Origin: a virus
Length of the DNA: 64,000 nt
IMG/VR virus record: IMGVR_UViG_3300002056_000074
Direction: 5' to 3' (one strand)
In this document: one piece after another, positions 1 through 64,000 of the stretch
Layout of the letters: each line of letters starts with the position of its first letter
Numbering within the stretch: position 1 is the stretch's first letter
The notes under the pieces: generated by a model
Database searches by the model: none
What the model saw: only the letters and a program-made list of their open reading frames with translations
Told to the model about the DNA's origin: nothing
Program-made: the position numbers and the translations under genes

Positions 1-78
1 AGTGTATTCACAATTATCATACAAATATCGATTATTATGAACTTCATTTGCCCGTGTTATAAACTCTTGAGTGTTCAT
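1..78 (-). CDS. 5' end (window-truncated) of a probable fifth Zn-finger/nuclease family gene
   Basis: ATG at 78 reads MNTQEFITRANEVHNNRYLYDNCEYT, matching family N-terminal repeats such as TTEEWIDKANKRHNNFYDYS; not in the ORF track. Confidence 0.7.
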   Translation of the reverse strand, partial: MNTQEFITRANEVHNNRYLYDNCEYT

Positions 79-107
79 TATGATCCATTTTCAAATTCAA
101 CATACAG

Positions 108-132
108 AAAAGGGTCCAAATGGACCCCTCTC
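108..132 (-). terminator. Intrinsic terminator after tail tube gene
   Basis: GGGTCCA/TGGACCC stem (112-127) followed by TTTT on the minus strand. Confidence 0.7.
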
Positions 133-175
133 TTTATATATTAAATCTATTATAACATAGATTTTATGGTTAATG

Positions 176-799
176 TTAACTATATCCACCCAAGGCAGAA
201 CCAGCACCAGAATACCCGCCTAAGTCTTGACGCCAGTGATCAATACTCAAAGTCACCGTAATTTGAACTGCTTCAGAACTAGAATAATCCATATCACCAT
301 ATTGAACATTCTCAAGGAAGCAACCTTCTAGTGTCATACGCTCAACAACCTCTGGCTCATTACCAGTACTTGTTTGATCAGTTGCTGGACCAAGACCGCG
401 ACCACCATCTAGAAGTTCTAAGCGACATGCAAACTTGTAATGACTACCCTCGGCAGCGGCCCCTAGAAATGGACCGGCTGAACCAGTAAGCCACTGTTGA
501 TACTGGAGCTGCTGCTGAAGAACACGAGATGCTGTACTATTAATATCATCTTCCAATGTAAAATCAACTGGCTCAATCATATGTTTACCAGCAACAAAAG
601 AACGCGAATTAAATCGATGCAATTCAATTTTATCGAAATTCAATGATGGGCGAGTGAACGTCACAAGCTGATGACTCAATGGTAGGGAGTTTACACCACC
701 TGCCATACCAACAAAAAATACGCGCCAGCGGTGCTGATGCTTCGGATGGAGAATTCCGTCTCCTACGCCGGGAATACCAAAATCATTCAATGTAGACAA
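176..799 (-). CDS. Tail tube protein (T4 gp19-like)
   Basis: PKHQHRWRV, RPSLNF..IELHRFNSRSFVAGKH, LEGCF..NVQYGDMDYSSSEAVQITVTLSID; TTG start with AGAGG RBS. Confidence 0.85.
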   Translation of the reverse strand: MSTLNDFGIPGVGDGILHPKHQHRWRVFFVGMAGGVNSLPLSHQLVTFTRPSLNFDKIELHRFNSRSFVAGKHMIEPVDFTLEDDINSTASRVLQQQLQYQQWLTGSAGPFLGAAAEGSHYKFACRLELLDGGRGLGPATDQTSTGNEPEVVERMTLEGCFLENVQYGDMDYSSSEAVQITVTLSIDHWRQDLGGYSGAGSALGGYS

Positions 800-842
800 A
801 ATTCTATCCTCTTAAACTAGACTGCTTAAATGCTTATAAAGA

Positions 843-848
843 TATTTA
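843..848 (-). promoter_or_regulatory. Late promoter box TAAATA for tube gene
   Basis: Same box precedes most structural genes; gp55 sigma is encoded in the window. Confidence 0.65.
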
Positions 849-876
849 TTAAATTGGTCTATTCTTGAAAGGTTTT

Positions 877-2340
877 TTACACTTTATCTCCGTAAATATA
901 TCTATTTTTCCCACAATCCCATAACCTATAAATCCCAAAATCTAAACAATTTTGGTATTCAGTCTTATCACTATCAAATGATTCCTGCATTATATTTTGT
1001 AACTGGCGTCTTCTAAAATTGAATTTATGATGCACTTTTCCCTTATAAAAATAACTATAATCTTCAGGCAATACGCGATCTAATTTCCAACCAGTTTGTT
1101 CATATAAATTACCATCACTCCATCGCAAATCAGCAAATGAAATCAACCGATCATACGTATAATTATGCTGTACATATTTTAACAATTTACTCAAACCACC
1201 AACTACCCGATGGCTCGTCGCATATCGATTAACAATAAAATCATTATCCTTTTTCTTTAATCCGACACATGCAACTAACTCATTGTCGTATTGTAGTCCA
1301 ATATTGATTGATGAATGTCCATCACCTTGAATATGATTATTATTGAAAAATATAGATTTTTCACCCCTATCAACTATAGTAATAGTTGTTTTGCGAGCAA
1401 ATACAGTATGTCGATTATCTACACCCACAACTGATCGCAATTTATTTTTAACCAACTCTTTAGAATCAACCCATTCATTAGAAAATATAGTAATTAGTCT
1501 AATTCCCCTATTATTACAATCTTCTAATTTATTTTTGTGATATTTCCGATCTCTTAAAAATTTTTCAGTATGCCAATACACTCCACAATACTCTATTGCC
1601 AGATTTAATTTAGGTAAATAAATATCAATTTGTTTTGGGGATATTATATCAAAACTCTGAGAAATGACTTTACCATCATATATACTTTTTATAAATTCCA
1701 AAACTTCATTCTCTTCATTAGAAAATGATTTTGAACATTTTGGGCAATTATGCTTATTTCTCAATAAATCATTAACTGCTGGATTAAAATACTCCCCACA
1801 TTTTTTACATCCAGTAGATGGCTTATCGAATGATCCTATAAACTCACTAGTCCATTTATCAAACATGAAAGTATTGGGTCTGTTCGTCTCAATATTTCTT
1901 ATAGTATCAATAGTAGATCTTCTAGACTTTGATACCACATTTTTTCTATTACAACTACAACCATGTCCCTTTTTATGATTTGATAGTAATTGAGTAAACC
2001 ATGTATTGCAGGCGTTGCATTTTATATCTACTTTACTGCCATCAGACACATCGTTGGATATCCTAGAATAATCATATCGAAATTTTCCATGTTTTTTAAC
2101 CGCAATATCGATGTGTTGTTTTCGCGTCTTCTTCTTTTTTTGAGTTCGATTATTTTCGGCGCAAGTAGGACAACCTCTACCTGATTTATGTGAATTTAAT
2201 TGTTGAGTAAAATTTCCATGTTCAGGACAAATATTTTTAACAAGATCTTTAGTTGTTAATTCCCTTGGCCATAAAGAATAATCATAAAAATTATTATGTT
2301 TTTTATGACAGTCTATCTTATGTTGTTCTGGAGTTTTCAT
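877..2340 (-). CDS. Free-standing homing-endonuclease-like protein: 3 Zn modules + PD-(D/E)xK nuclease + GNAT/Mom-like domain
   Basis: CPEHG..H..GCPTC repeats; IDIYLP..NLAIEYCGVYWH; NHIQGDG..NRYA..VVGGLSKLL..ISFADLRWSDGNLY..GW..WDCG. Confidence 0.8.
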   Translation of the reverse strand: MKTPEQHKIDCHKKHNNFYDYSLWPRELTTKDLVKNICPEHGNFTQQLNSHKSGRGCPTCAENNRTQKKKKTRKQHIDIAVKKHGKFRYDYSRISNDVSDGSKVDIKCNACNTWFTQLLSNHKKGHGCSCNRKNVVSKSRRSTIDTIRNIETNRPNTFMFDKWTSEFIGSFDKPSTGCKKCGEYFNPAVNDLLRNKHNCPKCSKSFSNEENEVLEFIKSIYDGKVISQSFDIISPKQIDIYLPKLNLAIEYCGVYWHTEKFLRDRKYHKNKLEDCNNRGIRLITIFSNEWVDSKELVKNKLRSVVGVDNRHTVFARKTTITIVDRGEKSIFFNNNHIQGDGHSSINIGLQYDNELVACVGLKKKDNDFIVNRYATSHRVVGGLSKLLKYVQHNYTYDRLISFADLRWSDGNLYEQTGWKLDRVLPEDYSYFYKGKVHHKFNFRRRQLQNIMQESFDSDKTEYQNCLDFGIYRLWDCGKNRYIYGDKV

Positions 2341-2361
2341 GCCCCTCGATTATAACACAAA

Positions 2362-2955
2362 TCAATCAGATTCTGGATTAACAACCTTTGGATCTTTTCC
2401 CTCAGCTGCAGTAGCCTCAGCCAATGCCTTTAATAAACTACTATGATTTACGATAATGTTGTTATTAGTAGTATTGTTATTTTTTTCCCGTGAAGCCTTT
2501 TTATCAGCCATCACAATTTTGTCCTTATTTGCTTTTTGATTACTACTATCCTTGGCACTATCCAATGCAATTCGTAAATATTGTGCAGCAACTTCTAAAT
2601 TTCTCGCCCTAAACCGACCCTCTACTAAGGCTGCCTCCTGCATTTGTGTTGAAAATGCCTGTAATCCCATATTGTAGATTTCTTGGAATTTTTCAGCATT
2701 TTTAGAGTCAATACTATCGTATATGGATTCGATATTAGGGGCGCGTTCCAAAACTCCAGACATAGTTTTCTCATTGATATATTCTTCATCACTCTCTTCC
2801 AAAACTTCAATTTCTTCATCTCGTATCAATACTCTACTATCACTATCATTATGTTGATCACCTTCCGCCACGATAAATGGATTGGCGGAAGGTGTAGATC
2901 CACGTTCAATATCTAACATATCTTCTAGTGGATGATTTTTAATTTGTTTTGTCAT
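2362..2955 (-). CDS. Probable terminase small subunit (gp16-like)
   Basis: Helical core plus C-terminal TTNNNIIVNHSSLLKAL resembling gp16 ends; TATAAATA at 2961-2968; morphogenesis context. Confidence 0.5.
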   Translation of the reverse strand: MTKQIKNHPLEDMLDIERGSTPSANPFIVAEGDQHNDSDSRVLIRDEEIEVLEESDEEYINEKTMSGVLERAPNIESIYDSIDSKNAEKFQEIYNMGLQAFSTQMQEAALVEGRFRARNLEVAAQYLRIALDSAKDSSNQKANKDKIVMADKKASREKNNNTTNNNIIVNHSSLLKALAEATAAEGKDPKVVNPESD

Positions 2956-2978
2956 ATATTTATTTATAACGAAACAAA

Positions 2979-3455
2979 TTATATAAAAATATCTTTTTCT
3001 GTAAGTAACCTAAATTCGATGCCTTTCTTATTACAAAACTCTTGAGCAGCGTGCCATTTATCCATATTTGTTTCATAAGTTGAATGCTCATAAAGAAAGG
3101 TAGATTCCTTTTTTCTCTTGGTTCTTTTAGGTTTTTTAGTTTGGTTGAAGGGTTTTACTTCCCATAACGATTCCCTAATTTTCCCTCTCACATCAACATA
3201 CTTAACATAGAAGTCAATATAGTATTTGTGCATCCTTCCAGTAGCCCGCTTAAAGTAAGGTATTGCTACAATTTCTGATCCCCAACGTAAAATCTTGGGA
3301 TTGGTGTCTAGAAATTTACAAACATCCAATTCCCAACTAGACATAAACCAAATTTCATTTATATTACCGATATATTTTTGAGGATTTTTTGGTTTGTATA
3401 ACCCTCTTGAAAATTTGGTAGTGTTTTTACCTGTGCGAGAACTATTTAAAGTCAT
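2979..3455 (-). CDS. Head completion nuclease (T4 gp4/TnsA-like)
   Basis: GLYKPKNPQKYIG, SSWE, WGSE..IPY, YYIDF, EVKP, KWHAA..C..F.LLTE. Confidence 0.9.
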   Translation of the reverse strand: MTLNSSRTGKNTTKFSRGLYKPKNPQKYIGNINEIWFMSSWELDVCKFLDTNPKILRWGSEIVAIPYFKRATGRMHKYYIDFYVKYVDVRGKIRESLWEVKPFNQTKKPKRTKRKKESTFLYEHSTYETNMDKWHAAQEFCNKKGIEFRLLTEKDIFI

Positions 3456-4897
3456 TCAGAAGATACAGGAGAAGGTTGGTTTATTCCCGGAAATGTCGTT
3501 GATGTTGTATCTCCAGCGGTCAATGCAGATTTTACTACCTCAGCTTTAGATACTGGTTTTTTACCATCAGGATCAATAAATCCAGATGATGTATATAATA
3601 TTGGATATTCAGCACCAACACCCTCACCCGAAAGCTCCAATAATCTATCAACTCCAAATTTAGCGATGGGTATCTCAGGATTAATATAAAAATAATCATA
3701 CTCAAAATCAAACGAGAACTCTTGGCCTGCACCGCTCTCTTCCATCGTTGCTTCAGACAACTCAAAATTAGTGATCTTAGGATTTATCATATTATATGCA
3801 GTAATTGTGTTTGAGTTTTTACCAAATTGGTATATGGATATCTCTCTAACAATTGTCTTCCTATTTGCCAATAGCGTTCCGATTGATGATGATCTTAATG
3901 GGAAGATATCAGTCCTACTTGCTATTAAAGCTTCTGTATCTGGACGAGGAAATTCCATTCCAAAATTTTCAAGATCATTGACCGCAGCAGCATTATCACC
4001 AGAAATATTTGTTATTGGACTCATTGCCCTGACATACATTGCATAGAATGTTGCTGCATTATTTTGTTGATCATCTATAAATCGCATGTTAATAGGATTA
4101 AATGTTGCCATGCGAATTGCTTTGGTTCGATAATTATAATAATTGGCATCTTCATAATCATAAGCTATTCCGGGACGATTTGTTGATTTAACCATGAACG
4201 CCAATTCTGTTGCCACATTATTTTTCAATTTTATTTCTTTTGTTGTCCCAGATACATTACTCGCAACTTCATCTCTAGTGGCACGATCAGTTAAATTTAT
4301 ACCAATCGAACTTGCATATTCAGCGTGTAATTTAATATCCACAATAAATTGAAAATTTTGTTTTGGTGCACGATCAATCAAATCTACTGCATAGGGAGAC
4401 GGGTTACATTGAAATTTTTCAAGTTCTCTCTCTGCAGAATTGCCTTCCACTGGATCACGAAATATTTTAGAGGCTATACTTTCTAAATTTTGAAAATCCT
4501 GTATCCTATTTGGTATATCAGCAAAAGTAAATCGGCCATTCTGTACATCACTAGCCAATACTTTTGCTGCGCCTACTGCACCATTAACTGCACCGGGATC
4601 AAATTGAGCAACAGAGTTTTGTACCTCTTGGTTTAATCCCATACTACTAAGTATATCATTGGCGGTATTACCTATAACAGTACCTCCTATACCAGAACTA
4701 CCGCCCGTGCGTAATGCATTAGATGAATCCGCTAGTGTTTGGAGCGTCTCTCTAATCTTTCCACCACCTCTACCGAAATCATTGAGAACTTCCAATTTTC
4801 CTACCGCACCAGCAGTGCCTAAGAGAGTACGTTTTCTGGTCTGAAGGGCGTTATTTCTTGCTGTTTCAGCGGGGCAATTGCATCTATAATCTGTCAT
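3452..4897 (-). CDS. Tube-fold baseplate/tail protein (gp19/gp48/gp54-like)
   Basis: APKQNFQF, VKSTNRPGI, NYYNYR, FNPINMRFIDD, INPKITNF, F.F.FEYDY; TAAATA at 4904-4909. Confidence 0.6.
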   Translation of the reverse strand: MTDYRCNCPAETARNNALQTRKRTLLGTAGAVGKLEVLNDFGRGGGKIRETLQTLADSSNALRTGGSSGIGGTVIGNTANDILSSMGLNQEVQNSVAQFDPGAVNGAVGAAKVLASDVQNGRFTFADIPNRIQDFQNLESIASKIFRDPVEGNSAERELEKFQCNPSPYAVDLIDRAPKQNFQFIVDIKLHAEYASSIGINLTDRATRDEVASNVSGTTKEIKLKNNVATELAFMVKSTNRPGIAYDYEDANYYNYRTKAIRMATFNPINMRFIDDQQNNAATFYAMYVRAMSPITNISGDNAAAVNDLENFGMEFPRPDTEALIASRTDIFPLRSSSIGTLLANRKTIVREISIYQFGKNSNTITAYNMINPKITNFELSEATMEESGAGQEFSFDFEYDYFYINPEIPIAKFGVDRLLELSGEGVGAEYPILYTSSGFIDPDGKKPVSKAEVVKSALTAGDTTSTTFPGINQPSPVSSE

Positions 4898-4911
4898 AGT
4901 AATTATTTATG

Positions 4912-6360
4912 TCAATTGTTATTAATTACGAAACGCAGTTTTCCACAATCCCAAATTCGATAGATGTTATTCCGTGAACAATTTTCTTGCTCAGATTCAT
5001 CTGGATTAAATGCTTCACCTAACATTACTGCAAGTGCCTTGCGCCTAAAATTAAATTTATGTTTTCGCTCACCACCATAGAAATAAAAATAATCTGGCCT
5101 AAGTTCACTTTCCAAATCCCAACCTGTTTTTTTATATAAATTACCATCACTCCATCGCAAATCAGCAAATGAAATAATTTGGTTCCACTCATGATTTCGC
5201 TGGAAATGTTTAAGTAAGCGACTACTTCCACCGGGAATTTGCTTAGAAGTTGCATATCGATTTAAATAATAATCATTATTCTTAATATGCTTAAATGTCA
5301 TACAGGCAATCAATTCATCTTCATAATATAGCCCATAAGAAAATTTTCCCTGACCATCACCCTGAATATGATTTTTATTTAAAAATGTCTTTCGGATTTT
5401 ATTATTAATTGGCTTAATTTTACATAATCTGGCATATATTTTATCCCTATCGTCAATTTTAAGAAGTGATTTGAGTTTTGATTTAACTTGGATGTTTCTA
5501 TCATCCCATTCATCTTCGAAAATAGTGATTAATTGAACACCTTGCTTCTTACACATCTCATACTTATTTTTATGATAATGCCTGTCCTTACCATACTGTT
5601 CGGTGTGCCAGTAATTACCACAAAATTCAATTGCCAAATTATGGTCTGGAATATAAACATCCAACTCGTATGGAGATATTAATAATCTATCAGATTCGAT
5701 TATACTAACATCGAAGGATTTAATAAAATTAACTAAATCCTTCTCTTTTTTTGATTTTTTATTCATACACTTAATACACCCAACACCAGATAAATGGGAA
5801 GATGCCCGCAATTTAAATATACCGTGGTTTGGGCAGGTAACACTAACAAATTCTCTTGAATTGATATATTCCGTTAAAGTATAATCATAAAAGTTATTAT
5901 GTTTAATGTTTGATGCCTTAACGAATGCCTGTGTGTTACTTTTTGGTATTCCTCTACCCAATTTAGTTCTTGCTATAATAGAACATTTATTACAACCATG
6001 ACCATCTCTGTGATCTCTGGGTATTTGTGTGAATCTCCCATGCTGTTTACATTTTATAATAACTGGTGTAATGGCATTCTTATACACTACTTCACTATAA
6101 TCATATACATCATTATGTACTTTTTTGGCCAATTCTATCCACTCTTCAGTAGTTAATTTTTTAACACCTGCACAGGCAGGACAAGTGGCTGTTAAATTTA
6201 TATGATTTTTTGCTAGTTGCCAAAAAGATCCATGTACTGGGCAAATAATCTCAATTTTTTCAGTTGATTTGGTATAAACCGATTTAGAGTAATCATAAAA
6301 GTTATTATGCCTTTTATTTGCCTTATCTATCCACTCCTCAGTAGTTAATTTCTTTGTCAT
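4912..6360 (-). CDS. Homing-endonuclease-like protein: 3 Zn modules + PD-(D/E)xK + GNAT/Mom-like domain
   Basis: CPVHG/CKQHG/CPNHG modules; ELDVYIP..LAIEFCGNYWH; NHIQGDG; ISFADLRWSDGNLY; RIWDCG. Confidence 0.8.
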   Translation of the reverse strand: MTKKLTTEEWIDKANKRHNNFYDYSKSVYTKSTEKIEIICPVHGSFWQLAKNHINLTATCPACAGVKKLTTEEWIELAKKVHNDVYDYSEVVYKNAITPVIIKCKQHGRFTQIPRDHRDGHGCNKCSIIARTKLGRGIPKSNTQAFVKASNIKHNNFYDYTLTEYINSREFVSVTCPNHGIFKLRASSHLSGVGCIKCMNKKSKKEKDLVNFIKSFDVSIIESDRLLISPYELDVYIPDHNLAIEFCGNYWHTEQYGKDRHYHKNKYEMCKKQGVQLITIFEDEWDDRNIQVKSKLKSLLKIDDRDKIYARLCKIKPINNKIRKTFLNKNHIQGDGQGKFSYGLYYEDELIACMTFKHIKNNDYYLNRYATSKQIPGGSSRLLKHFQRNHEWNQIISFADLRWSDGNLYKKTGWDLESELRPDYFYFYGGERKHKFNFRRKALAVMLGEAFNPDESEQENCSRNNIYRIWDCGKLRFVINNN

Positions 6361-6363
6361 TTA

Positions 6364-6430
6364 ATGAACTTCTCTTTTGAATATACCTATTCTAGCACCT
6401 ATTTAGACTATCTTCAAAAGAAAAGTTCAT
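6364..6430 (-). promoter_or_regulatory. 22-bp inverted repeat covering the RBS, with TAAATA late box (6400-6405) in the loop
   Basis: ATGAACTTCTCTTTTGAATATA (6364-6385) versus reverse complement of 6409-6430, 20/22 match. Confidence 0.65.
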
Positions 6431-6435
6431 AGAAA

Positions 6436-6472
6436 TTAAAAAGTCCCCTATTATAAAAATAATAGGGGACTT
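6436..6472 (-). terminator. Intrinsic terminator after sheath gene
   Basis: AAGTCCCCTATTAT/ATAATAGGGGACTT 14-bp stem with U-run on the minus strand. Confidence 0.8.
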
Positions 6473-6505
6473 CTCTCAAATACTACTTACGGCAATGACT
6501 TATAC

Positions 6506-8869
6506 TTAGAATGAAGCGTCTTGAGTCGTGATTCTGATTGGAATTGTGATAAATTCAACAGCCTTAGTAGGCTTAACCATAATATCAATAATTAATTCAG
6601 AACGCTCCACTACAATCGCTGGATTGTTGGAAGAATCACACACGGTTAAGAAGTCAGTAATGCCACGATTAGTCATAATATTAGATAAGAAATTATCAGC
6701 TAATGATTTAACATTATCACGGGTTCTCTGATCATTAGGCTCGAACAAGAATCCAACCATAGTTAATCGCAATTGACGCCTAATATGCATTACCAATCGA
6801 ACAACATTGATACGATTTAATGCAGTTGCCTCTGGTGATGAAGTCTTCTGACCCATAAGAGTAATTCCTCTACCGGGAGCAAATACGATTGGATTAATTC
6901 GTCCACTTGCATTGTCTTGATATAGCGCATCACGCTGTCCCTGATTTAGTGCAACTGGTGTGAATGAAGTCGCACCACCCAAAACTCCAGTTGCATAGCC
7001 AACATCAGTTACTCCAGTAACGAGACCACGAGTAGTTCCTGCTGGGGCAATCCAAAGAAAAGAGATGTCATCACTGAATGCAAATTGGCGAATGGCAACA
7101 CCTGAAGGAGCTGCTAACACATTAACACCATCCAAATTACTTGTTAGACACCAAGGGTAGTAATAGGCAACATTTTGATTGTTTTGTCGCTCAGAAGAAA
7201 TTGCCCAACCATTAGTTGGATTAGTGATTCCAGCAGGAGGTAGATTGGGCGGTGTATCACCAATTACAAATACCTCATTCTCCTGAGCATCTGATAATGC
7301 GAGTAGTTCATCAACAATTTCGGGATAACCGGGTGCTGCTACAACATTAAATTGAAAATTTTCAGCACGAACTCCCTCATTACTAACAATCTGTTCCTGT
7401 AATGCAGAAACAATACTTACTCGGCGGGCTGCATCATTTGCACCCAAAGATGTACGGATTAGGAAGATTTGGGTAAATTTAAACGTAGACGCAGTATCTA
7501 CAAATAATGCACCAGCATCTTCTGGGGTCCATGCAAAATCATCAATGATAGTTCCACTTGTAGCTGATGTTCCCAAATCAACATTTCCATCGAATCCCAA
7601 AAATTCCTCAGTTGATGCGGGCTGATCAAAACCATCAGGAAATACCGGAAGACCTTCACCTACGGGGCGGGCAGTGAAGAAGTCATCACCCGAATTTCTA
7701 AAAGAGTACGTTCCTAGTTCATCATCAAAAATAAATTGGGTTGCATCACGCATCAAATCTTTAAGTTCTTGTGCGTTGACAGTCTCTTTAAGCTCCTGAA
7801 GATTAGTAGTAGCTACTGTGACATCAAATGCTGTGCCAACGCCTGTAGATGACGCCTGAGCTACAATTTGACCATCAGAAACAAAGGTTCCAGTAGTCAA
7901 TAGGACAAATTCCGTTACAGCGCCTGTGCCATCTACTGCCAATACACGAACAGTAGCAGCGTTCATTAATGTAATAACCTCACCCTCTACGTATCCGGTT
8001 CCGGGAGTAAACGTGAAATCGCTAGTTGATTGAAGAAATGCCGGGACAACATTAGCAATACCCAAAGTTACTGAAGCTCCTATCCGTGCAGAAGTTACAT
8101 CATTCGATCCACTATCAACAACAGATACTTGATTTAATGTAGTTCCAATAACTGGTGCAGTTGCAGCAGTGGTAACTTCAAATTCAGTTATATCACCATC
8201 AACAACGGTATTAACAGTAATTACCATACCAGCATCTAGTGTGATCACATCTCCCACTTCATAATCACCAGTCAAGAGTGTTGCATTCCCACCAACAAAT
8301 GAACCATTGGGTGCGGTTCCATCAAATGCTACCTGTGTTTGGCCTGCGCCTGCAACTACTCCAGAAAATTTATTAGTTAGAACGGAAAATCCGGGTTGAG
8401 TGAGACCTGCAGCAGAGTTGATACCGTTTAAGTAATTTTGAACAATATTTGGTACGATAAGTGCTCCATCTTCAGTTCGTTCGTCCCACAAATTTTGAAT
8501 CGCATCAACACTATCATCCAAGTTGACATTCGCACGAACGACGAATGCACTACTACCAATTCCTAAATATTGATTGAGTGCCAATAGTCCATATTCATTT
8601 CTAGCATCACCGTGATGCTGATTGCCCAATCCATCATTTAAGAATCGTGGTTCACCATAAAAATTAATAGAATCTCGCAATGATGTTATGTTGCGAATAA
8701 CTGAATGCTCAAATGTATAATCTGCTGGTTGGCCATCATTTCTAAGTTTCTCATCTTTAGTAGCAATGAAAAAAAGTGGGACCAAAGATGCTGTACCTGC
8801 AGCAAATAATGAGTCATCAATAAGTTGTGTTTGTATTCCGGGCGATACTAAAGACATGTTATTCTCCAA
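6506..8869 (-). CDS. Tail sheath protein (gp18-like) with inserted decoration domains
   Basis: LVSPGI, NEYGLLAL..YLG, APGYPE, YYPW, W.APAG..RG, QRDALY..RINPI, GQKT, RINVVRL, FEPND..TR, VKPTKAVEFI.IP; probable start 8857; TAAATA at 8889-8894. Confidence 0.95.
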   Translation of the reverse strand: MENNMSLVSPGIQTQLIDDSLFAAGTASLVPLFFIATKDEKLRNDGQPADYTFEHSVIRNITSLRDSINFYGEPRFLNDGLGNQHHGDARNEYGLLALNQYLGIGSSAFVVRANVNLDDSVDAIQNLWDERTEDGALIVPNIVQNYLNGINSAAGLTQPGFSVLTNKFSGVVAGAGQTQVAFDGTAPNGSFVGGNATLLTGDYEVGDVITLDAGMVITVNTVVDGDITEFEVTTAATAPVIGTTLNQVSVVDSGSNDVTSARIGASVTLGIANVVPAFLQSTSDFTFTPGTGYVEGEVITLMNAATVRVLAVDGTGAVTEFVLLTTGTFVSDGQIVAQASSTGVGTAFDVTVATTNLQELKETVNAQELKDLMRDATQFIFDDELGTYSFRNSGDDFFTARPVGEGLPVFPDGFDQPASTEEFLGFDGNVDLGTSATSGTIIDDFAWTPEDAGALFVDTASTFKFTQIFLIRTSLGANDAARRVSIVSALQEQIVSNEGVRAENFQFNVVAAPGYPEIVDELLALSDAQENEVFVIGDTPPNLPPAGITNPTNGWAISSERQNNQNVAYYYPWCLTSNLDGVNVLAAPSGVAIRQFAFSDDISFLWIAPAGTTRGLVTGVTDVGYATGVLGGATSFTPVALNQGQRDALYQDNASGRINPIVFAPGRGITLMGQKTSSPEATALNRINVVRLVMHIRRQLRLTMVGFLFEPNDQRTRDNVKSLADNFLSNIMTNRGITDFLTVCDSSNNPAIVVERSELIIDIMVKPTKAVEFITIPIRITTQDASF

Positions 8870-8945
8870 ATAAATAATGTTATGAAACTATTTATCTACA
8901 TGGATAAAATAAGTATCTTTTTAATAGCGGACAACCACAAAAAAG

Positions 8946-9311
8946 ATGTTAACACCAATAACTAAGTTAAAATTAGAATTAAAATCTATAAAAGTAATTA
9001 TCTCTGATGGAGCTAAAATCAATCCACGATTTAAATATATACTTTTCAAACATCCTGAATATCTACAAAAAATAGTAGAAGCCACCTGTTTTCTGAAATA
9101 TGATGCTCCAATAAAAACTCGAATACAATGTATTATTAAAAATATCGATTATCAACCACTATGTAAATTATGTAATAGTCCATGTAAGATGATTACAAGT
9201 GGTAGCAAAAATAATAACCAATTTTCGAGTTATTGTAGTAGACGCTGTAGTGGGTTGGATTTATTGCCTACTAATATTAAGAAATCTGTAGATCCAAATT
9301 TGACAACTTAG
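8946..9311 (+). CDS. Small Zn-binding protein (stand-alone nuclease-associated-type DNA-binding domain)
   Basis: RIQCI....QPLCKLC...FSSYCSRRCS; similar to 22418..22753. Confidence 0.55.
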   Translation: MLTPITKLKLELKSIKVIISDGAKINPRFKYILFKHPEYLQKIVEATCFLKYDAPIKTRIQCIIKNIDYQPLCKLCNSPCKMITSGSKNNNQFSSYCSRRCSGLDLLPTNIKKSVDPNLTT

Positions 9312-11660: not shown

Positions 11661-11890
11661 TATTTTCGTACCTTCTTTAGTTTTCGTTGTGCTATTGCTC
11701 TTCGACCATAAATGTTTCCAGTATCAGAGGCTTTCATTAATGCATCACTAATTTCTACCTTATTGGACACACTACCATAGTCAAACTTTTCTCTGGTGTA
11801 TATGGGCAGGATCAATTCTTTATGCTTCTTACCGAAGTTTTTTGTAAAATCAATTGCTCTTTTTTCAGTAATTATTTCATTGAGAGTCAT
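11660..11890 (-). CDS. Small basic putative virion/internal head protein
   Basis: MTLNEIITE N-terminus; translationally coupled to the gp14-like gene. Confidence 0.45.
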   Translation of the reverse strand: MTLNEIITEKRAIDFTKNFGKKHKELILPIYTREKFDYGSVSNKVEISDALMKASDTGNIYGRRAIAQRKLKKVRK

Positions 11891-11915
11891 TAATAATCAA
11901 CATAATATAAGTATA

Positions 11916-13556
11916 TTATGTATTTATAATCACATACCGCTTTTTTCCACAATCCCATATTCTATAAATTTTATTTCGAAAACAATTTTCATATTCACTT
12001 TCTTCGGGATTAAAATCATCACTTAATAATTTTTCTAATTGCTTTCTCCTGAAGTTAAATTTATGCACTCTTCGCTTTCCTTGGATATATGAATAATCAG
12101 GATTGGAAGTATTATCCAGAGTCCATCCAGTTTTTTCATACAAATTACCATTGCTCCATCTAAGATCAGCAAAAGAAATAATTTTTTCCCATTTATTATG
12201 TTTCCTGAAATAACTGAGTAATTTGGAAAATCCACCAACAACTCTAGCAGATGATGCATACCTACTAAGTGTATATTCAAATTCAGAATTTTTAACAAAA
12301 GTCATTACGGCAATCATATTACCTTGTGTGTCGCTAAGTGCATATTCAATCGAGGTTTTACTATCGCCCTGTATATGATTGTTATCCAAAAACAATCTCT
12401 TACTTTTCTTATTAGGAATATATACTGTGGTGTTTCTGGCAAATATTGTATTTCGATTATCACAACCAAGAAGTGATTTTAATTTATTCTTAACTTGATT
12501 TGTCTTAAATTCCCACTCATCTTCAAAAATAGTGATCAATTGGATACCTTGCTCCATACAAGCATCATATTTTTCACGATGTTTATTTTTATTCATATCA
12601 AATTCTTCTGAGTGCCATTTCAATCCACAAAATTCAATCGCAATATTTTTGCTAGGAATTAGTATATCCAATTCTTTTCCATTTAAAACAACTCTATTTG
12701 ATTGCTCTGCATCATCAACAAATTTAGATACGAATTCAAATACTTCAATTTCAGGCTTGGATGGTCCTACACCGGCACATTTTTTACAGCCATTATGTTT
12801 ACCAACGATTGCCCACTCTGCCTTTTGTGTAAATCTTCCATGAATAGAACACTCGATTTCTATAAATTCATCCATATTGACATATTCAGTAGAAATTAGA
12901 GTATTGTTTTGTGAAATATCTTTAATAGCCTTTTCAATCACATCTAAATCTAGTTTCCCAGTAGGTGAACATTTGGGGCATGATCCGCAATCACTATTCA
13001 AATGATTTACCATATTAGTTTCAAATTCACCATGTCCATCTTTTTTGCAAATCAATTTGACTCTTTGGGACTTATTTTTATAGTCTTTTATCAGTGAATA
13101 ATCAAATTGATCACCATGTCTTTTCTTTGACTCTAAAATAACATCATCCATTGTATAATTATATTTTCCCGAACATTTAGAACATCCAGAGTTCATAAAA
13201 ATGTGGCTTTTTGCTAGAACTTTATGTTCTCCATGAACTGGGCACAAAATAGTAATCATTGATTTAGTAGATTTATATTCTGCGTGAATATACGGATATT
13301 CATATTGTCCATGAACAACGTTTGCCTTGGATAGAAAATCATCCACGGACATTTTCTTAGCGCCATTGCCATTGCATTTTGGGCACCCTTGGCCACACTT
13401 ATGTGCATTTGGTGTTTGGAAGAATTCGCCATGAATGCTACATATTATTTTTCCAAGCACTTTACTATTAACATATTTAAATTCTGATAGATCATATCGC
13501 CCATTATGGGCCTCTACCATTTCTTTGATATGTTCTTCTTTAGTCTTTCTAGCCAT
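11916..13556 (-). CDS. Homing-endonuclease-like protein: 4 Zn modules + PD-(D/E)xK + GNAT/Mom-like domain
   Basis: CSIHG/CPVHG repeats; ELDILIP..IAIEFCGLKWHSE; NHIQGD; ISFADLRWSNGNLY; RIWDCG. Confidence 0.8.
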   Translation of the reverse strand: MARKTKEEHIKEMVEAHNGRYDLSEFKYVNSKVLGKIICSIHGEFFQTPNAHKCGQGCPKCNGNGAKKMSVDDFLSKANVVHGQYEYPYIHAEYKSTKSMITILCPVHGEHKVLAKSHIFMNSGCSKCSGKYNYTMDDVILESKKRHGDQFDYSLIKDYKNKSQRVKLICKKDGHGEFETNMVNHLNSDCGSCPKCSPTGKLDLDVIEKAIKDISQNNTLISTEYVNMDEFIEIECSIHGRFTQKAEWAIVGKHNGCKKCAGVGPSKPEIEVFEFVSKFVDDAEQSNRVVLNGKELDILIPSKNIAIEFCGLKWHSEEFDMNKNKHREKYDACMEQGIQLITIFEDEWEFKTNQVKNKLKSLLGCDNRNTIFARNTTVYIPNKKSKRLFLDNNHIQGDSKTSIEYALSDTQGNMIAVMTFVKNSEFEYTLSRYASSARVVGGFSKLLSYFRKHNKWEKIISFADLRWSNGNLYEKTGWTLDNTSNPDYSYIQGKRRVHKFNFRRKQLEKLLSDDFNPEESEYENCFRNKIYRIWDCGKKRYVIINT

Positions 13557-13630
13557 TTTAGTATTAATTTTTTAATATAATAAAAATATTATATACTATA
13601 TAAATTACTAAAACCGTGAAGTGGTTAAAA

Positions 13631-16600
13631 TTACCCAATCACAAAATCATGAGCACCATACATTTCTGGTCTAGATGCAGTGAAGTTATCTAATTGAGAA
13701 TAACACTCAGCGAAGTCAGTAGCAGCCTGAGATGCCAATTCTGCAGCATTGAGTGAAACTCCTCCCCCACTTCCCGGAAGACTTGCGAATTTTCCTCTAA
13801 TTTCTGATAATGTCATTCTAGCGCCACCCAATGCAAATCGCTCAATCCATGATTTAACTAATCGATCCTTTAACAAATCTTGTTCAGTTCGTTCGCAATA
13901 TGCGTCCAACAAAATTCTTTCATGACGATGGAAATTCTGATGGAAATATATAGTTCGATCATTTTCAATAAAATGATAATTGATACGTGTTGCAAACATC
14001 AATTCCAATTGCTCAATATATTGTTGTGATAGATGCAATGTAGTCATATCAAATCCACCAGCAGTAGATGTTCCATATAATTGCTGTGCAAATAATTGAT
14101 CAAATATTGAGTTGCTACTAAAGCCACCCGAGAATGCTCCTGAGCGGCGGTGTGCACCCATAATTCCAACTATTGTATTGAATCCTGCCTTCTTATTAGT
14201 CAATTGATATTGTTGAACGCCTGCCCTCACATCCATAGTAAAAAAGCGGCGATCATAGGCAATATCACTTCTTTTCCGCAATGATTCAAAGGCACCTTGA
14301 ATAGCAGTATCAAGTTGCTCATCAGTAAGCTCAACCTCTACAACTGGCCAACCTAATTGAACTCGTATAGAGTGTGCTAATTCTCGGCGCTCATCTGGTG
14401 TTCCATCAGTTCCAACACCCAATTGATCATATGATGGTACTGATTCAAGACCATCAGTTCCTGCAATAGTTGCTTGAACTTGGGCACCTTCCAAGGCATT
14501 GAATAGAAAATTTTCTTCAGTTACATTAGAATTTATATATCGTGGCACCCGAAACGGATTATCTGTATAAACCTGCTTAAATCCTGCAACGTGGGCATGT
14601 AATGGGGAGCCAACTCTAGTTACTGCAGTGCCGTCATATACAGATGGATTATAATCTTGACCGGGTACAAGCATTAATAAACTGATGCATGTTCCAGTTT
14701 CTCTTGTTTGGAATAGTAAATTGCCACGTTCATCCATATTTGCTTGAACTTTCGGTGTAGCAGGTACATATTTCTTACCGTCCCACTCATTCAATTGATC
14801 ATTAACTAAGTCAAACCATAGTGTTCCAACATTATTAACAATAGGTGCAGTGGTATATGGCTGACTCAACCAGTTAATTCCACTACGCACCATCAATTCA
14901 TTGGTTGATTCATTGAACCATAATTTTCCAGTAGGCGGTTGACTTGGATCATCTACACTAAATGTAGGTTCAGACGGTAAATCATTCCATTTTGGTAATT
15001 GAATCAATCCAGATTCTGGATTATACCATGCAGGGGCAGCATCTCCATCCGCTATGATGGTAGGATCACTTGGAAAATCAATATAGTTTTCCGCCTCTTC
15101 ATAAAAACTTCCATTCCATGTTTTATAAACACTAGGTGTTGTTGAGGTATCCAACCATGTAGAAACGTTATCAATATCAGAGGCTCTTAATGGATCTTGT
15201 GAATCCTGTGTTAACTTAACGACCTCTACCCAACTATTGCGTATAGAACTTCTTTCAAATAATCTATCTGATACATCATCCCACCATAACTCACATGAAG
15301 TAACTAGAGTAGGATCTTCATTCCATTCAATAACATCGATTTCAATAAATTCATCACCGTTATATTTGTAAAAAGTATCTTCGGATTCTTTATACCATAT
15401 TAAATTTGGATAAATGATGGGAGTAACTTCGCCTATGACAAATCCAGTGATTGGTGGTAAGAGATTCCAATTACCAATAGTTGTGTTTGCGTTTTCATAA
15501 ACTACTCGCTCACGCATCATCCTATCATCTGGATTAAACCAATAAGTATCAGTGCCTAGTGCATCTGGCGCAACCTTCCATGTTAATGCTGATGTAGGCT
15601 CCCATACAGAATCACTGACGTTATATTTGAATAATTCAGATGTGTCCTCTTTGAACCAATATTCACCACAAATTCCCTGTGTAGGTAATGATGGATCATT
15701 ATCCTGAATAAATGATTGCACATCACACCATGCATTCCCACTCCAACTATAACTTTTTAATCCATCAAACCATAGCTCATCACAAGATGGATTAGATGGG
15801 TCAGATGTATGAATAATAGTATTAATCTCATCAAAATTTGTTCCATTCCAAATTTTTAAAATGGGAACACCACCTGATAGATCAACCCAATAAGGTTTGT
15901 TTGTTACATCAGTTGGGTCTGTATCTGAAAGGATGACATCATCAACACCCGAATAATTAGTACCATCATAAACTTGCAGAACCTTATTATTTGGATTCCA
16001 ATAATATGATCCACTATTGGGTGGTTCACTACTACGTGGTGGATTATCTACTAATGCCAACTGTTCATTGATAGCACCAATCATATCTTCATAGGTTTGG
16101 CCATCCTCACCATCAATTGAGACTGATACTCTATTACCTTCAAATGAATCATTTGGAAAATTTGTATTGAGATCAAAATCAAAAGAATATTCTTTTCCGA
16201 TTTCAAGGCCAGTTCCATCAGTTGGGGCTGCACCATCACCATCATTTAATACCACTGCAGCAATACTGGGGGTGTTTGGTTGAGCATCATCTCCGTAGGA
16301 ATCGGAGTATGTCCTAACGCCATCAGAATGATATTGTAATGAACAATCTACTGCATATACTGCTAGGTAATGTGGTCCTTCCCCAATATCATTGATGATG
16401 ACTGATGTGGTTAATTCCTCGCCTCTAGCTTTTTCATTGGGTTCATAAAAAGCACCAACTACTAATGCACCACCAATGCGATCACCGACATGCAAACTTG
16501 GATTGGCCGTGGGGTCTGCTTCATATTGAACACCATCTTCTGGTATATTATCTGGTCCCACAGGACTAGTGTGTAGTAATACAACCACACCACAATATGC

Positions 16601-16762
16601 ACTATTGATCGAAGATGCATTGTTGCAACCTGCCAATGGTGTTGGGATGTTCCACTCTATGGTTCCTTGGTTTTGTGTGGGTACTGTTGGCATCCAAACT
16701 GGAGAGATTTTTTGTCCCTCTATTTTAATTGCACCAGAAACATCAGCGATTCCATCAAACAT
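13631..16762 (-). CDS. Neck protein (gp13-like C-terminal domain) with ~780-aa Trp-repeat N-terminal extension
   Basis: IRVQLGWPVVEVELTDEQLD, WIERFALG..LSEIRGKFASLPGSGGGVSLNA, FVIG end; repeated P..G.LW(F/Y) units. Confidence 0.8.
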   Translation of the reverse strand: MFDGIADVSGAIKIEGQKISPVWMPTVPTQNQGTIEWNIPTPLAGCNNASSINSAYCGVVVLLHTSPVGPDNIPEDGVQYEADPTANPSLHVGDRIGGALVVGAFYEPNEKARGEELTTSVIINDIGEGPHYLAVYAVDCSLQYHSDGVRTYSDSYGDDAQPNTPSIAAVVLNDGDGAAPTDGTGLEIGKEYSFDFDLNTNFPNDSFEGNRVSVSIDGEDGQTYEDMIGAINEQLALVDNPPRSSEPPNSGSYYWNPNNKVLQVYDGTNYSGVDDVILSDTDPTDVTNKPYWVDLSGGVPILKIWNGTNFDEINTIIHTSDPSNPSCDELWFDGLKSYSWSGNAWCDVQSFIQDNDPSLPTQGICGEYWFKEDTSELFKYNVSDSVWEPTSALTWKVAPDALGTDTYWFNPDDRMMRERVVYENANTTIGNWNLLPPITGFVIGEVTPIIYPNLIWYKESEDTFYKYNGDEFIEIDVIEWNEDPTLVTSCELWWDDVSDRLFERSSIRNSWVEVVKLTQDSQDPLRASDIDNVSTWLDTSTTPSVYKTWNGSFYEEAENYIDFPSDPTIIADGDAAPAWYNPESGLIQLPKWNDLPSEPTFSVDDPSQPPTGKLWFNESTNELMVRSGINWLSQPYTTAPIVNNVGTLWFDLVNDQLNEWDGKKYVPATPKVQANMDERGNLLFQTRETGTCISLLMLVPGQDYNPSVYDGTAVTRVGSPLHAHVAGFKQVYTDNPFRVPRYINSNVTEENFLFNALEGAQVQATIAGTDGLESVPSYDQLGVGTDGTPDERRELAHSIRVQLGWPVVEVELTDEQLDTAIQGAFESLRKRSDIAYDRRFFTMDVRAGVQQYQLTNKKAGFNTIVGIMGAHRRSGAFSGGFSSNSIFDQLFAQQLYGTSTAGGFDMTTLHLSQQYIEQLELMFATRINYHFIENDRTIYFHQNFHRHERILLDAYCERTEQDLLKDRLVKSWIERFALGGARMTLSEIRGKFASLPGSGGGVSLNAAELASQAATDFAECYSQLDNFTASRPEMYGAHDFVIG

Positions 16763-16800
16763 GAAAATTACCTTTTAATCATTATTAATGGTATTTAGGT

Positions 16801-17133
16801 TTAATTACTTGATTTATTATCAGTATTGTTGACCAACCATTTTAATAATTTTTTATTATTCCACGAAGGAACTTCATTGATATCATCACCATCAATATCC
16901 TCAAATGTTATTTCAATGGCTCTTGGCTCACGATGTTCTTCACATAACCACTTAATAAATAATTTATTTCTCGGTTTCAGATTTATTTGATGTTTAGAAT
17001 CATCATATCCAACTGGGATCTTGCAATATTTTTTAACTTCATATTCCAATACAGTCTTTGGGATATCTTGTGCAGCGGCGCGCAAACAATCCTTAGATGT
17101 TAAATATTCTTTCAATGATAATTTTTTGGACAT
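16801..17133 (-). CDS. Hypothetical late protein
   Basis: Intact ORF with TAAATA at 17165-17170. Confidence 0.6.
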   Translation of the reverse strand: MSKKLSLKEYLTSKDCLRAAAQDIPKTVLEYEVKKYCKIPVGYDDSKHQINLKPRNKLFIKWLCEEHREPRAIEITFEDIDGDDINEVPSWNNKKLLKWLVNNTDNKSSN

Positions 17134-17267
17134 TCACACTAACTCAGAAATTGGTTGTGATATATATTTATTGATCAGCTGTGGATTAGTTCACATAAAA
17201 TTAATTCACTAAATGTTAATTATAATGTATAATACTGTTACTAAAACAATAAAACAGATTGATCCCA

Positions 17268-19010
17268 ATGCCTAAGAAATTAACACAAGAAGAATATATT
17301 CAGCGATGTGAAGAACTTTATGATAATGGAGAGTTTGATCATTCGTCAGTGGTTTATACAAAAGCTCAGGAATTTATATATCCTGTCTGCACTTCCTGTG
17401 GTAATAAACAAAAAAGAAAAGCATATAGTCACATTCAGAAAAAATTGAAATGTGGGGATTGTGCTGGTAATAAAAAATTAACAGTTGAAGACATAAAAAA
17501 GTCTGTCTTTGATATATATGACTCAAATATCACACTTAAATCCTTCACGTCTCATGGCAATAAAAGTAAATTTGTAGCAACGTGCAAAAAACATGGAGAT
17601 TTTAATACCCAATATGTTTTGCTTGTGGGTAGAGAGTCTGGCTGTCCGAAATGTCGTAAGGAAATTAAACATTCTATCAATGATGAAATTAAATTTCAAA
17701 ATGAATTAGAATTAGAAAAAATGAAAGAACAAGAGAGGAGTACTCAAAGAGTAGTCACTCAACGTAAAAACTTAGAAAAGTTTCTAATTAAAGCAAGGGC
17801 TACATATCCTGATCGTGATGATATTGAAGTATTGAATTATGTTAATATGAAAACAACCGCCACATTTGTTTGCCCCAATCACGGTGAATATCAACAAAAA
17901 CCTAACAATTATCTAAAACATCAAGGCTGTGCTAAATGCAGACCATTAACTAAGTCGCAAGTTCCGATGACTCTTAATGAATTTATCAGTCGATCTAAAA
18001 AAATGCACGGTGATCTATATGAATATGATAAAGCTGTTTATAAAGGATCAACAGAAGCAATAACATTATTTTGCAAAAAACATAAAGAATATTTTGATGT
18101 TAATGCGGGCAAACATATCGGAAATGGTACTAGAGCTGGGTGCCAAAAGTGTTCAAACATATCTCAGACATCAAATGGTGAACTTTCACTAGTCAAATGG
18201 TTAAAATCATTAGATATTAAGGTGATTACAAGTAACTATAATATTGTACCACCTAAAGAAATTGATATATTCCTACCTGATTATAATATAGCCATTGAAT
18301 TCAATGGGTTATATTGGCACAGTGAAATTAAAGGGAAGTATAGGTACTATCATAAGGAGAAATATGATGGTTGTAAGGCCCAAGATATACAATTGCTGAC
18401 TATATTTGAAGATGAATGGGAGACTAGACAAACTCAAGTTAAAAATAAGATTAGACATCTATTAAATAAATCAAAAAATGATAGCGTATATGGAAGAAAA
18501 TGTATTATTGATATAGTTGATAGTACATCTAAGAAATCATTTTTCGATGAACATCATATTCAGGGCGATGGTCCATCATCGATTAATATTGGTTTATATT
18601 TTGATGATAAGTTGGTGGCCTGCATGGGCTTTGTTGCCAATCCTAATAATTCATTTACATTAAATCGCTATGCTACATCAACATCAGTTGTTGGTGGGTT
18701 TAGTAAACTACTCAAGTATTTCAAACAAAATTATAATTGGACTGAAATAGTATCATTTGCTGATTGTAGATGGAGTGATGGTGGTTTATATGAGAATAAT
18801 GGATGGAAGCTAGATAAAATATTAGAGCCAGATTATTCATACCTCTATAGAAATAAAAGAATGCATAAATTTAATTTCAGAAGAAAGCAACTTGAAAATA
18901 TGTTGGGTGACGACTTCAATATAGAAGAAAGTGAATATGAAAATTGTACCAGAAATAAAATTTATCGTATTTGGGATTGTGGTAAACAACGATATATCAT
19001 TAACAAATAA
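17268..19010 (+). CDS. Homing-endonuclease-like protein: 4 Zn modules + PD-(D/E)xK + GNAT/Mom-like domain
   Basis: MPKKLTQEEYI start; CKKHG/CPNHG modules; EIDIFLP..IAIEFNGLYWHSE; HHIQGDG; VSFADCRWSDGGLY; RIWDCG; TATAAT at 17221 and 17228. Confidence 0.8.
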   Translation: MPKKLTQEEYIQRCEELYDNGEFDHSSVVYTKAQEFIYPVCTSCGNKQKRKAYSHIQKKLKCGDCAGNKKLTVEDIKKSVFDIYDSNITLKSFTSHGNKSKFVATCKKHGDFNTQYVLLVGRESGCPKCRKEIKHSINDEIKFQNELELEKMKEQERSTQRVVTQRKNLEKFLIKARATYPDRDDIEVLNYVNMKTTATFVCPNHGEYQQKPNNYLKHQGCAKCRPLTKSQVPMTLNEFISRSKKMHGDLYEYDKAVYKGSTEAITLFCKKHKEYFDVNAGKHIGNGTRAGCQKCSNISQTSNGELSLVKWLKSLDIKVITSNYNIVPPKEIDIFLPDYNIAIEFNGLYWHSEIKGKYRYYHKEKYDGCKAQDIQLLTIFEDEWETRQTQVKNKIRHLLNKSKNDSVYGRKCIIDIVDSTSKKSFFDEHHIQGDGPSSINIGLYFDDKLVACMGFVANPNNSFTLNRYATSTSVVGGFSKLLKYFKQNYNWTEIVSFADCRWSDGGLYENNGWKLDKILEPDYSYLYRNKRMHKFNFRRKQLENMLGDDFNIEESEYENCTRNKIYRIWDCGKQRYIINK

Positions 19011-19012
19011 AG

Positions 19013-19040
19013 AAGTGTAAATAAAAAAGTGTAAATAAAA
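19013..19040 (+). repeat. Perfect 14-bp tandem duplication AAGTGTAAATAAAA (two TAAATA boxes)
   Basis: 19013-19026 identical to 19027-19040. Confidence 0.85.
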
Positions 19041-22417: not shown

Positions 22418-22753
22418 TTATATTTTTTCTTTTTTTCTTAACCAATACAAGGTGTTAGAGCATTTTTTTGAACAACATTCGTTATGTTTGTTCTTAATTC
22501 GATGCCAATTAACACGTTCGTTACATTCAGGCATTGCACATTCAGGAGACAGGTGTGTTTTATGATATAGATGCCAAAAACGTTGCTTAACAAATGCACC
22601 CGGAGATAAAAAATCAGTTCTTACAAGCAATTCTAAGTAATATTGGTAATGTGCATTATTGAATCCATTGATGCTAAAATTATTTTCAATAACATCAATG
22701 GCTAGCGTATCTAAAACAGTTTCTGGGTGTGAATGATCATATTCACCTTCCAT
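22418..22753 (-). CDS. Small Zn-binding protein inserted between protease and scaffold
   Basis: KQRFWHLY..PECAMPEC...CCSKKCS; similar to 8946..9311. Confidence 0.55.
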   Translation of the reverse strand: MEGEYDHSHPETVLDTLAIDVIENNFSINGFNNAHYQYYLELLVRTDFLSPGAFVKQRFWHLYHKTHLSPECAMPECNERVNWHRIKNKHNECCSKKCSNTLYWLRKKEKI

Positions 22754-63858: not shown

Positions 63859-64000
63859 CATATTGTTAATCTCCCATCACTGAGAGTGTCGGACTATATC
63901 ATAACCATATGTGATTATATTCACACTTAGGTTCCGGGCGCTGAATCTGGTATTTAAAGGGACTATACCCTGCCAGTAGTCTCTGCACCTTCTAGAAGTG
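63859..64000 (-). mobile_element. 3' part of a group I intron in polymerase motif B
   Basis: R element CAGAGACTAC (63976-63985), S element GATATAGTCC (63891-63900), P9 hairpin 63871-63886, terminal G at 63859 before ACA TAT GGA. Confidence 0.88.

Follow-up and report, generated by a model that had tools for sequence, protein, structure and literature searches.

Hef and Hef-like homing endonucleases are encoded by free-standing genes that lie between conserved genes, with several copies per genome; they are represented by PHROG 559 and 3339 and occur in PA5oct, AR9/PBS1, phiR1-37, Campylobacter phages and LIMEstone. The I-Bth0305I paper itself lists Hef in the EDxHD family (PMC3239194), whose members share a nuclease fold with Hef and have a modular N-terminal binding region, and, like Hef, carry hairpins over the ribosome-binding site and occur in introns and split inteins (PMC3239194, PMC2677866). 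A second relevant system is the Mom protein of phage Mu, for which it was found in 2026 that the donor is glycine from Gly-tRNA(Gly) and not an acyl-CoA (PMC13219725). The two activities meet in the Mom-REase fusions of group 2 jumbo phages, which Iyer et al. (2021) predicted to be protect-and-attack systems, citing PA5oct with five copies; the accessible part of that text treats them as a modification/restriction system and does not contain the word 'homing' (PMC7824862). The fusion and the cut-and-protect idea are already published as a prediction and are not new. Our literature search found no test of the function of the Mom-like half and, for these fusions, no demonstration of a link to homing, of a tRNA donor or of specificity set by a binding array.

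We analysed a 64,000-nucleotide stretch of DNA (the window) from an uncultured jumbo phage, which carries five selfish, putatively DNA-cutting genes of the Hef family, hef0 to hef4. The initial annotation had proposed four complete paralogues and a probable fifth, each inserted between late or virion genes. All four open reading frames are present, and the N-terminus of the fifth was confirmed at the window's edge, the whole gene (553 aa) being found on a longer ENA contig with identical neighbouring genes. The features are as follows.

1..78, minus strand: 5′ end of hef0, encoding the N-terminus; a tail-tube-like gene lies upstream
75..165, minus strand: hef0 leader, with an extended -10 box (157) and then a strong terminator-like hairpin (z -5.05)
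877..2340, minus strand: hef1, open reading frame of 487 aa with three zinc modules (zinc modules 1-~205, Vsr-like nuclease ~205-310, Mom-like GNAT ~310-487)
2341..2357, minus strand: extended -10 box (TGnTATAAT) of hef1, 17 nt upstream of the ATG
4912..6360, minus strand: hef2, open reading frame of 482 aa, with the tail sheath gene directly upstream
6356..6436, minus strand: hairpin over the hef2 ribosome-binding site (-24.8 kcal/mol, z -4.6)
8946..9311, plus strand: 121-aa zinc-domain gene between gp15 and sheath
11916..13556, minus strand: hef3, open reading frame of 546 aa with four zinc modules, downstream of gp13
17268..19010, plus strand: hef4, open reading frame of 580 aa counted from the ATG, with four zinc modules

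The flanking genes are of the T4-like virion type (sheath, gp13, gp15, gp4-like, terL and major capsid), and the placement among virion genes thus holds. Gene hef4, which has a TTG 9 nt upstream of its ATG, is antisense to the virion genes, with the major capsid gene on one side of it and a 110-aa gene on the other. The GC content of the hef copies is 28.5-32%, against 39% in the flanking genes. Leader hairpins of the type known from homing endonuclease genes (HEGs) are present at hef copies, that of hef2 holding a late TAAATA box (6405) and an extended -10 box (6397) in its loop, and sigma-70-type extended -10 boxes occur in three copies.

Judged by homology over both catalytic domains, the family is that of the Hef homing endonucleases. 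The C-terminal domain matches Hef of the T-even phage U5 with an E value of 8e-13 over 97%, both domains align colinearly, and the two share the nuclease residues (D, E, WH, HxxK) and a C-terminal domain ending in WDCG. U5 Hef differs in having another N-terminal domain and an Asn at the position of Mom D149, whereas in the window copies the arrays are of the DUF723 type and none of the six core Mom residues is missing. Homologues are found in PA5oct, hef2 is matched over at least 80% by 154 phage records, the Mom-like domain is matched by 404, and the nuclease is common to thousands of 50% clusters. Because the gene type is common and already annotated, the locus itself is ordinary.

How have these genes come to their sites? 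Most syntenic phages lack the genes at these sites; none of the five sites is occupied in every such phage, and the majority are empty in several: the hef1 interval is occupied in L092 and L094 and empty in L004, L091 and L096; the hef2 site is empty in L027, L094, L096 and L097; the hef3 site in L091, L094, L096 and L097; and the hef4 site in L094. Many syntenic phages have no copy in this region. Moreover, phage AR9 has one homologue, with all six Mom residues kept, within a group I intron, and a copy in L094 lies inside the split intein of terL, its insertion itself breaking the target. This sporadic occupancy and the intron and intein copies bear out the proposal that the genes behave as homing elements; around the window copies and 17 viral loci, Rfam detected no introns. 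The paralogues lie on deep branches of the tree and the sister of hef2 belongs to another phage, so that recent within-genome expansion is rejected; an AU test also rejects a single clade of paralogues (p=0.03), but largely owing to that one sister, and it adds little. The 'expanded family' of the initial annotation does have five paralogues, but they are old and divergent copies. P0010, which resembled a natural hef1/hef2 recombinant, was rejected as an assembly artefact because the genes next to it on its contig are fragmented. The 121-aa zinc-domain gene is kept at 58-59% in three related phages and resembles a 540-aa Hef at the same site and in the same orientation in L095 (34% over 80 aa, E 3e-12); from this similarity it is probably the relic N-terminus of a U5-type Hef. 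The best explanation is that the five are free-standing Hef homing endonuclease genes that were inserted independently and long ago, and homing as a whole is very probable. The window genes have the architecture of the Mom-REase fusions (PMC7824862), and the evidence for mobility connects those fusions with Hef.

The nuclease is Vsr-like (EDxHD type) and closest to I-Bth0305I (3R3P: HMM E 3e-8; Foldseek TM 0.79 by target, rmsd 2.6), and its pairwise identity among the five copies is 41-63%. The equivalents of E170, D196 and H213 are present in all four window copies and in 112, 118 and 118 of 119 sequences, respectively. The D222 position is an invariant His (119/119 and 135/135), as it is in the aligned U5 Hef; this is a Hef-clade variant of the EDxHD nuclease. 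The catalytic Lys of canonical PD-(D/E)xK enzymes is absent, with E-[FY]-[CN]-G-x-x-W-H in its place, so the earlier assignment to PD-(D/E)xK is right as to the superfamily fold, but the domain belongs to the His-dependent Vsr/EDxHD branch without the (D/E)xK lysine. Compared with I-Bth0305I, the window copies have His for D222, zinc arrays for NUMOD repeats, and an extra Mom-like domain.

That extra domain is indeed of the GNAT/Mom fold, as had been suggested from its motifs. In a structure model of hef2 residues 200-482 (pLDDT 97.5), it is a GNAT fold with an HTH-like insertion, placed identically in the Hef and Mom models, and its top Foldseek match is Mu Mom (8BV8; E 4.7e-8); by VIA the comparison with Mom gave Z 11.7 over 142 residues, level with generic GNATs. 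The domain is 47-64% identical between pairs of the five copies, and the motifs AIE, G..WH, HIQGD, RYA, GG.S.LL, SFAD.RWS.G.LY..GW and WDCG, quoted in the initial annotation, show little or no variation across the four window copies. Sequence likeness to Mom is weak (PHROG 1384, E 5e-4; hhalign, E 1e-3): a PDB sequence search did not reach Mom, an hhalign comparison with Mu Mom by itself gave no significant match, and Pfam PF25680 was not listed for the hef copies and matched one relative weakly. Of these searches, the one by structure alone gave a clear result. The domain shares with Mu Mom (8BV8; PMC13219725) the GNAT fold, the HTH-like insertion and six residue equivalents, but is ~12-17% identical, has neither the loop preceding the R111 strand nor a basic N-terminal tail, and is part of a fusion with a nuclease and a binding array; its enzymatic activity is putative.

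The equivalents of H58, R111, S124, D149, R151 and Y159 are intact in all five copies, as mapped by motif and secondary-structure register of two models rather than by superposition, S124 being the least certain, since hhalign put it elsewhere. Among 135 relatives picked by the nuclease alone, conservation is D 99%, H 95%, R 94%, R 91%, Y 91% and S/T 77%, so that the Mom catalytic positions rank among the most conserved columns, above nearly all structural positions; 93 of the 135 keep all six, and a full Mom domain is present in 128 of 150 relatives. Against an active enzyme, the Y59 position is Ile or Leu and the W181 position mostly Arg, and alanine mutants at either drastically reduce Mom activity. 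On balance we lean slightly towards the domain still being an enzyme, one that transfers an aminoacyl group, probably glycine from charged tRNA, onto DNA adenine. The proposed acetyl-CoA assay, and with it a missing CoA pocket as a refutation, is probably wrong in detail: because the Mu Mom donor is Gly-tRNA(Gly) (PMC13219725), the assay would probably give a false negative and the missing pocket would not refute the idea.

Do the zinc arrays set the target? There are three or four modules per protein in all five copies, as annotated, but the strict CxxHG..H..GCxxC pattern fits only 0-2 of them per protein, several being Cys4 or longer-spaced variants. The arrays are 27-39% identical between copies. 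In two same-site pairs (the relative of hef2 being P0002) each array is the other's best match out of 240, so that arrays follow the insertion site in these two pairs only. Between hef1 and its same-site relative, identity is 41% in the arrays and 46% in the C-terminal domain, which is 49-55% identical to that of paralogues; these values suggest module swapping, but an AU test did not reject the grouping of hef1 with this relative (p=0.166). In L094 the hef1 interval holds a third element, whose array is unrelated, and hence one interval is open to independent invasions.

Taking these features together, we propose that the zinc array would recognise an extended site that lies within or close to the conserved virion gene beside it, that the Vsr-like domain would cut the matching site in a co-infecting relative without the gene, and that recombinational repair would then copy the hef gene into the cut relative. 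The Mom-like domain would add an aminoacyl group, probably glycine from charged tRNA, to DNA adenine, its likeliest job being to label the target copy in the carrier's genome and so spare the carrier, like a single-chain type IIG enzyme. The architecture is compatible with one recognition module directing both a modification and a cleavage blocked by that modification. We give the whole chain, from homing through self-protection by modification, a probability of about 0.4. In its favour, the L094 split-intein copy, whose target is broken by its own insertion, has a decayed Mom pocket, with the H58, R111 and Y159 equivalents lost. U5 Hef reportedly (Sandegren et al., 2005) cuts the DNA of its own phage as well, and such a carrier would need protecting. 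Against it, Y59 and W181 are replaced and the Mom loop before the R111 strand is lost, the AR9 intron copy keeps the six residues although its target should be disrupted, U5 Hef has its Asn at D149, and ordinary free-standing HEGs rely on sequence divergence, not on modification, to leave their own genome uncut. In addition, a diffusible enzyme that cuts and modifies meets both genomes in a mixed infection, so that asymmetry needs pre-marked progeny DNA and fast maintenance of the mark during replication. The fuller version, a single-chain homing element whose target is self-protected by tRNA-dependent adenine glycylation and which is retargeted by zinc-array exchange, is doubtful, and equally tentative is its likening to a methyl-free analogue of type IIG restriction-modification enzymes.

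Alternatively, the Mom-like domain might aid cutting, by binding or flipping adenine or by first marking it, and protect nothing. In the published Mom model a flipped dA is surrounded by R111, D149 and R151, which are conserved here; Y59 and W181 have been replaced, the pocket of the AR9 intron copy is intact, and with few exceptions the domain comes joined to this nuclease clade. Yet I-Bth0305I, which has no domain of this kind, cleaves (PMC3239194), one or more of the six residues is missing from ~30% of relatives, and the L094 split-intein copy keeps its nuclease residues despite its decayed pocket. We regard this as possible but unlikely. Less probable still is that Mom is beneficial cargo, modifying adenine broadly against host restriction and so offsetting the cost of the element. 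Such shielding is what Mom does in Mu, the catalytic set is still in place here, and the genes are counted as momylating enzymes by Iyer et al. (PMC7824862); however, five to eleven copies per genome would be redundant, many syntenic phages have none in this region, and the tether to a site-specific array argues for local action. There is little probability that the domain has lost catalysis and serves as a structural or dimerisation scaffold: degenerate pockets do exist (U5 Hef, L094) and the sequence likeness to Mom is weak, but the catalytic positions exceed nearly all structural ones in conservation. A non-mobile restriction-modification set that degrades host or superinfecting DNA non-specifically, as PMC7824862 proposes and as the sigma-70-type boxes might suit, is very improbable given the sporadic insertion between conserved genes, the association with an intron and an intein, the hairpins, the low GC content and the arrays that track the site.

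The value of the locus is as test material: it offers five intact Mom pockets with different arrays and known relatives with empty sites, and the 2026 Gly-tRNA finding for Mom shows the right assay. Should the Mom-like domain prove active and protective, it would account for the way in which a free-standing homing nuclease leaves its own genome uncut, and would yield a site-directed adenine-modifying enzyme.

The initial annotation's four complete paralogues (hef1-hef4) were found, and the 26 codons that it took for the start of a fifth (hef0) belong to a complete 553-aa gene on the same phage's ENA contig. Each paralogue consists of an N-terminal zinc array, a Vsr-like nuclease and a C-terminal Mom-like GNAT domain.

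Paralogues and other genes discussed in the text
1-78, minus strand: 5′ end of hef0
877-2340, minus: hef1
4912-6360, minus: hef2
8946-9311, plus: 121-aa gene with a zinc domain, lying between gp15 and sheath
11916-13556, minus: hef3
17268-19010, plus: hef4
19040-19756, plus: 238-aa zinc-ribbon protein with HNH-like C-terminal motif (PHROG 5104), adjoining hef4
22418-22753, minus: 111-aa protein with a Cys pattern similar to that of the 121-aa gene, between prohead protease and scaffold genes
62407-63861, minus: C-terminal piece of family B DNA polymerase with mini-intein (PF14890, E 7.5e-9)

The window comes from an uncultured T4-like jumbo phage, of which it spans the virion and replication region; the major capsid protein shares 59% identity with its counterpart in Xanthomonas phage XacN1, and contigs carrying the proteins reach 280,865 bp. 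The copies in it are further members of the Hef family. Their C-terminal domain matched U5 hef (E 8e-13) in a search that returned 404 phage records, whose annotations read homing endonuclease, Hef-like or nuclease/acetyltransferase; all four complete copies matched PHROG 559 and 3339 (E < 1e-87), and hef2 homologues are present in PA5oct. The motifs that the annotation had quoted (such as HIQGD and WDCG) are invariant or nearly so in the four copies. Each copy has the reported three or four zinc modules (DUF723-like), but the strict pattern given for them fits only some. Any two copies share 27-39% identity across their arrays, 41-63% across the nuclease and 47-64% across the C-terminal domain.

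Because long branches separate the five copies and no supported clade was formed, we regard them as old, separate arrivals; a recent expansion within the genome is rejected on the same grounds. In hef1/hef2 and hef1/hef0, which are otherwise about 50% identical in protein, the motif equivalent to D149-Y159 (Mu Mom numbering) is covered by unbroken stretches of 14 and 13 identical codons (40-42 bp of DNA); the longest such stretch in 72 between-genome pairs is 8 codons. This comparison, devised after the data had been seen, suggests occasional gene conversion at this motif.

In related phages of the same gene order, Hef sites are mostly empty: the gp13 site in loci L091, L094, L096 and L097, the sheath site in L027, L094, L096 and L097, and the hef1 site in L004, L091 and L096 (it is occupied in L092 and L094). 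L094 also carries Hef copies at sites unoccupied in the window. At the sheath (hef2) site, L091 has a 325-aa gene (L091:8996-9973) that joins zinc arrays of the CapR/DUF4379 type to a DUF2726-like nuclease and lacks Mom. In AR9, the RNA polymerase gene has a group I intron that holds a Hef homologue, and at L094:18318-21238 terL is split by an intein, which a Hef whose Mom pocket has decayed interrupts in turn. This is the fractured-gene layout of PMC2677866, with the break near the intein N-terminus, as in the terminase case there. The GC content of the hef genes is 28.5-32%, versus 39% in flanking core genes.

The 121-aa gene is homologous to the N-terminus of a full-length 540-aa Hef that L095 carries at this site in the same orientation; it is 58-59% conserved in L091, L094 and L096, and may be a DNA-binding remnant of a Hef that has been domesticated. 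The 111-aa protein aligns with it weakly (20%). The 238-aa gene is probably a second mobile nuclease, at the capsid site. Between hef0 and terL, locus L001 has 163-aa and 65-aa genes (L001:17977-18667), the former with no match in a Pfam search; the syntenic slot in L091 and L092 is one ~200-aa gene.

Strong leader hairpins precede hef2 (z -4.6) and hef0 (z -5.05). The hef2 hairpin spans the ribosome-binding site and contains promoter boxes in its loop, matching the description of T4 homing endonucleases. Three of the 11 minus-strand extended -10 boxes lie no more than 80 nt 5′ of Hef starts (157, 2357 and 6397), a hint that these genes are expressed early or in the middle phase. Late TAAATA boxes at or just past the 3′ ends of hef1-hef4 would serve downstream genes; two also lie 5′ of the 238-aa gene.

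The nuclease had been called PD-(D/E)xK. Because the (D/E)xK lysine is absent from the window copies, we place it instead in the Vsr/EDxHD branch, in line with its match to the I-Bth0305I catalytic domain (profile E 3e-8; fold TM 0.79). The equivalents of E170, D196 and H213 (I-Bth0305I numbering) are conserved, and an invariant His occupies the D222 position, as in U5 Hef. Taylor et al. (PMC3239194) had already assigned Hef to the EDxHD family. Very probably, the zinc array would guide this nuclease, whose cleavage is predicted, and so bring about homing.

Do the arrays set the target? Same-site arrays could be compared for hef1 with the L092 element and for hef2 with the relative P0002, whose gene likewise lies downstream of a sheath gene. 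Both pairs are reciprocal best matches among 240 N-terminal regions, which fits site-specificity but does not demonstrate array exchange. Plain descent explains the hef2/P0002 match, because the catalytic halves also group together (support 100/98). Those of hef1 and the L092 element do not group in the tree, with grouping not rejected (AU p=0.166), and a third element at the hef1 interval, in L094, has an unrelated array.

The Mom-like assignment was borne out when hef2 residues 200-482 were modelled with AlphaFold2 (pLDDT 97.5): the best Foldseek match of the model is Mu Mom (E 4.7e-8), followed by GNAT acetyltransferases; similarity by sequence alone is weak. VIA-align against Mom gave Z 11.7 over 142 residues, with generic GNATs scoring level, and the model shares the HTH-like insertion of Mom. 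Six residues important in Mom (Silva et al. 2026, PMC13219725) match in register: H58 follows the first helix, R111 is the sixth residue of its strand, S124 is the third of a helix, D149 and R151 lie where a strand ends, and Y159 is the third residue of a short helix. This mapping uses secondary-structure register against a modelled Mom relative (93% identical), not superposition, and is least certain for S124. Two further residues that matter in Mom, Y59 and W181, are replaced in the Hef copies. Among 150 relatives picked by nuclease alone, and so not selected for Mom residues, 128 have a full Mom domain; in 135 aligned relatives, conservation of the D149, H58, R111, R151 and Y159 equivalents is 91-99%, which ranks them with the top columns, and all six residues are retained in 93.

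What might this domain do? Our leading reading, to which we give a probability of roughly 0.4, is that it would modify DNA and thereby protect its carrier. We place it first because the pocket is decayed in the split-intein copy and because U5 Hef reportedly cuts its own phage's DNA. Points that speak against this reading are that the AR9 copy in the intron retains the pocket, that D149 is missing from U5 Hef, and that a diffusible enzyme would need pre-marked DNA to separate self from rival. A somewhat less probable alternative is that the domain binds or flips adenine for cleavage; that it is broad anti-restriction cargo seems unlikely. A dead scaffold is more improbable still, because the pocket is under purifying selection.

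Self-protection by such a cut-and-protect element is already in print as a prediction, in Iyer et al. 2021 (PMC7824862). The Mom donor is Gly-tRNA(Gly), not acyl-CoA (PMC13219725), and therefore the assay with acetyl-CoA proposed in the initial annotation needs changing. The five Hef copies are good material for testing the activity of the Mom-like domain.
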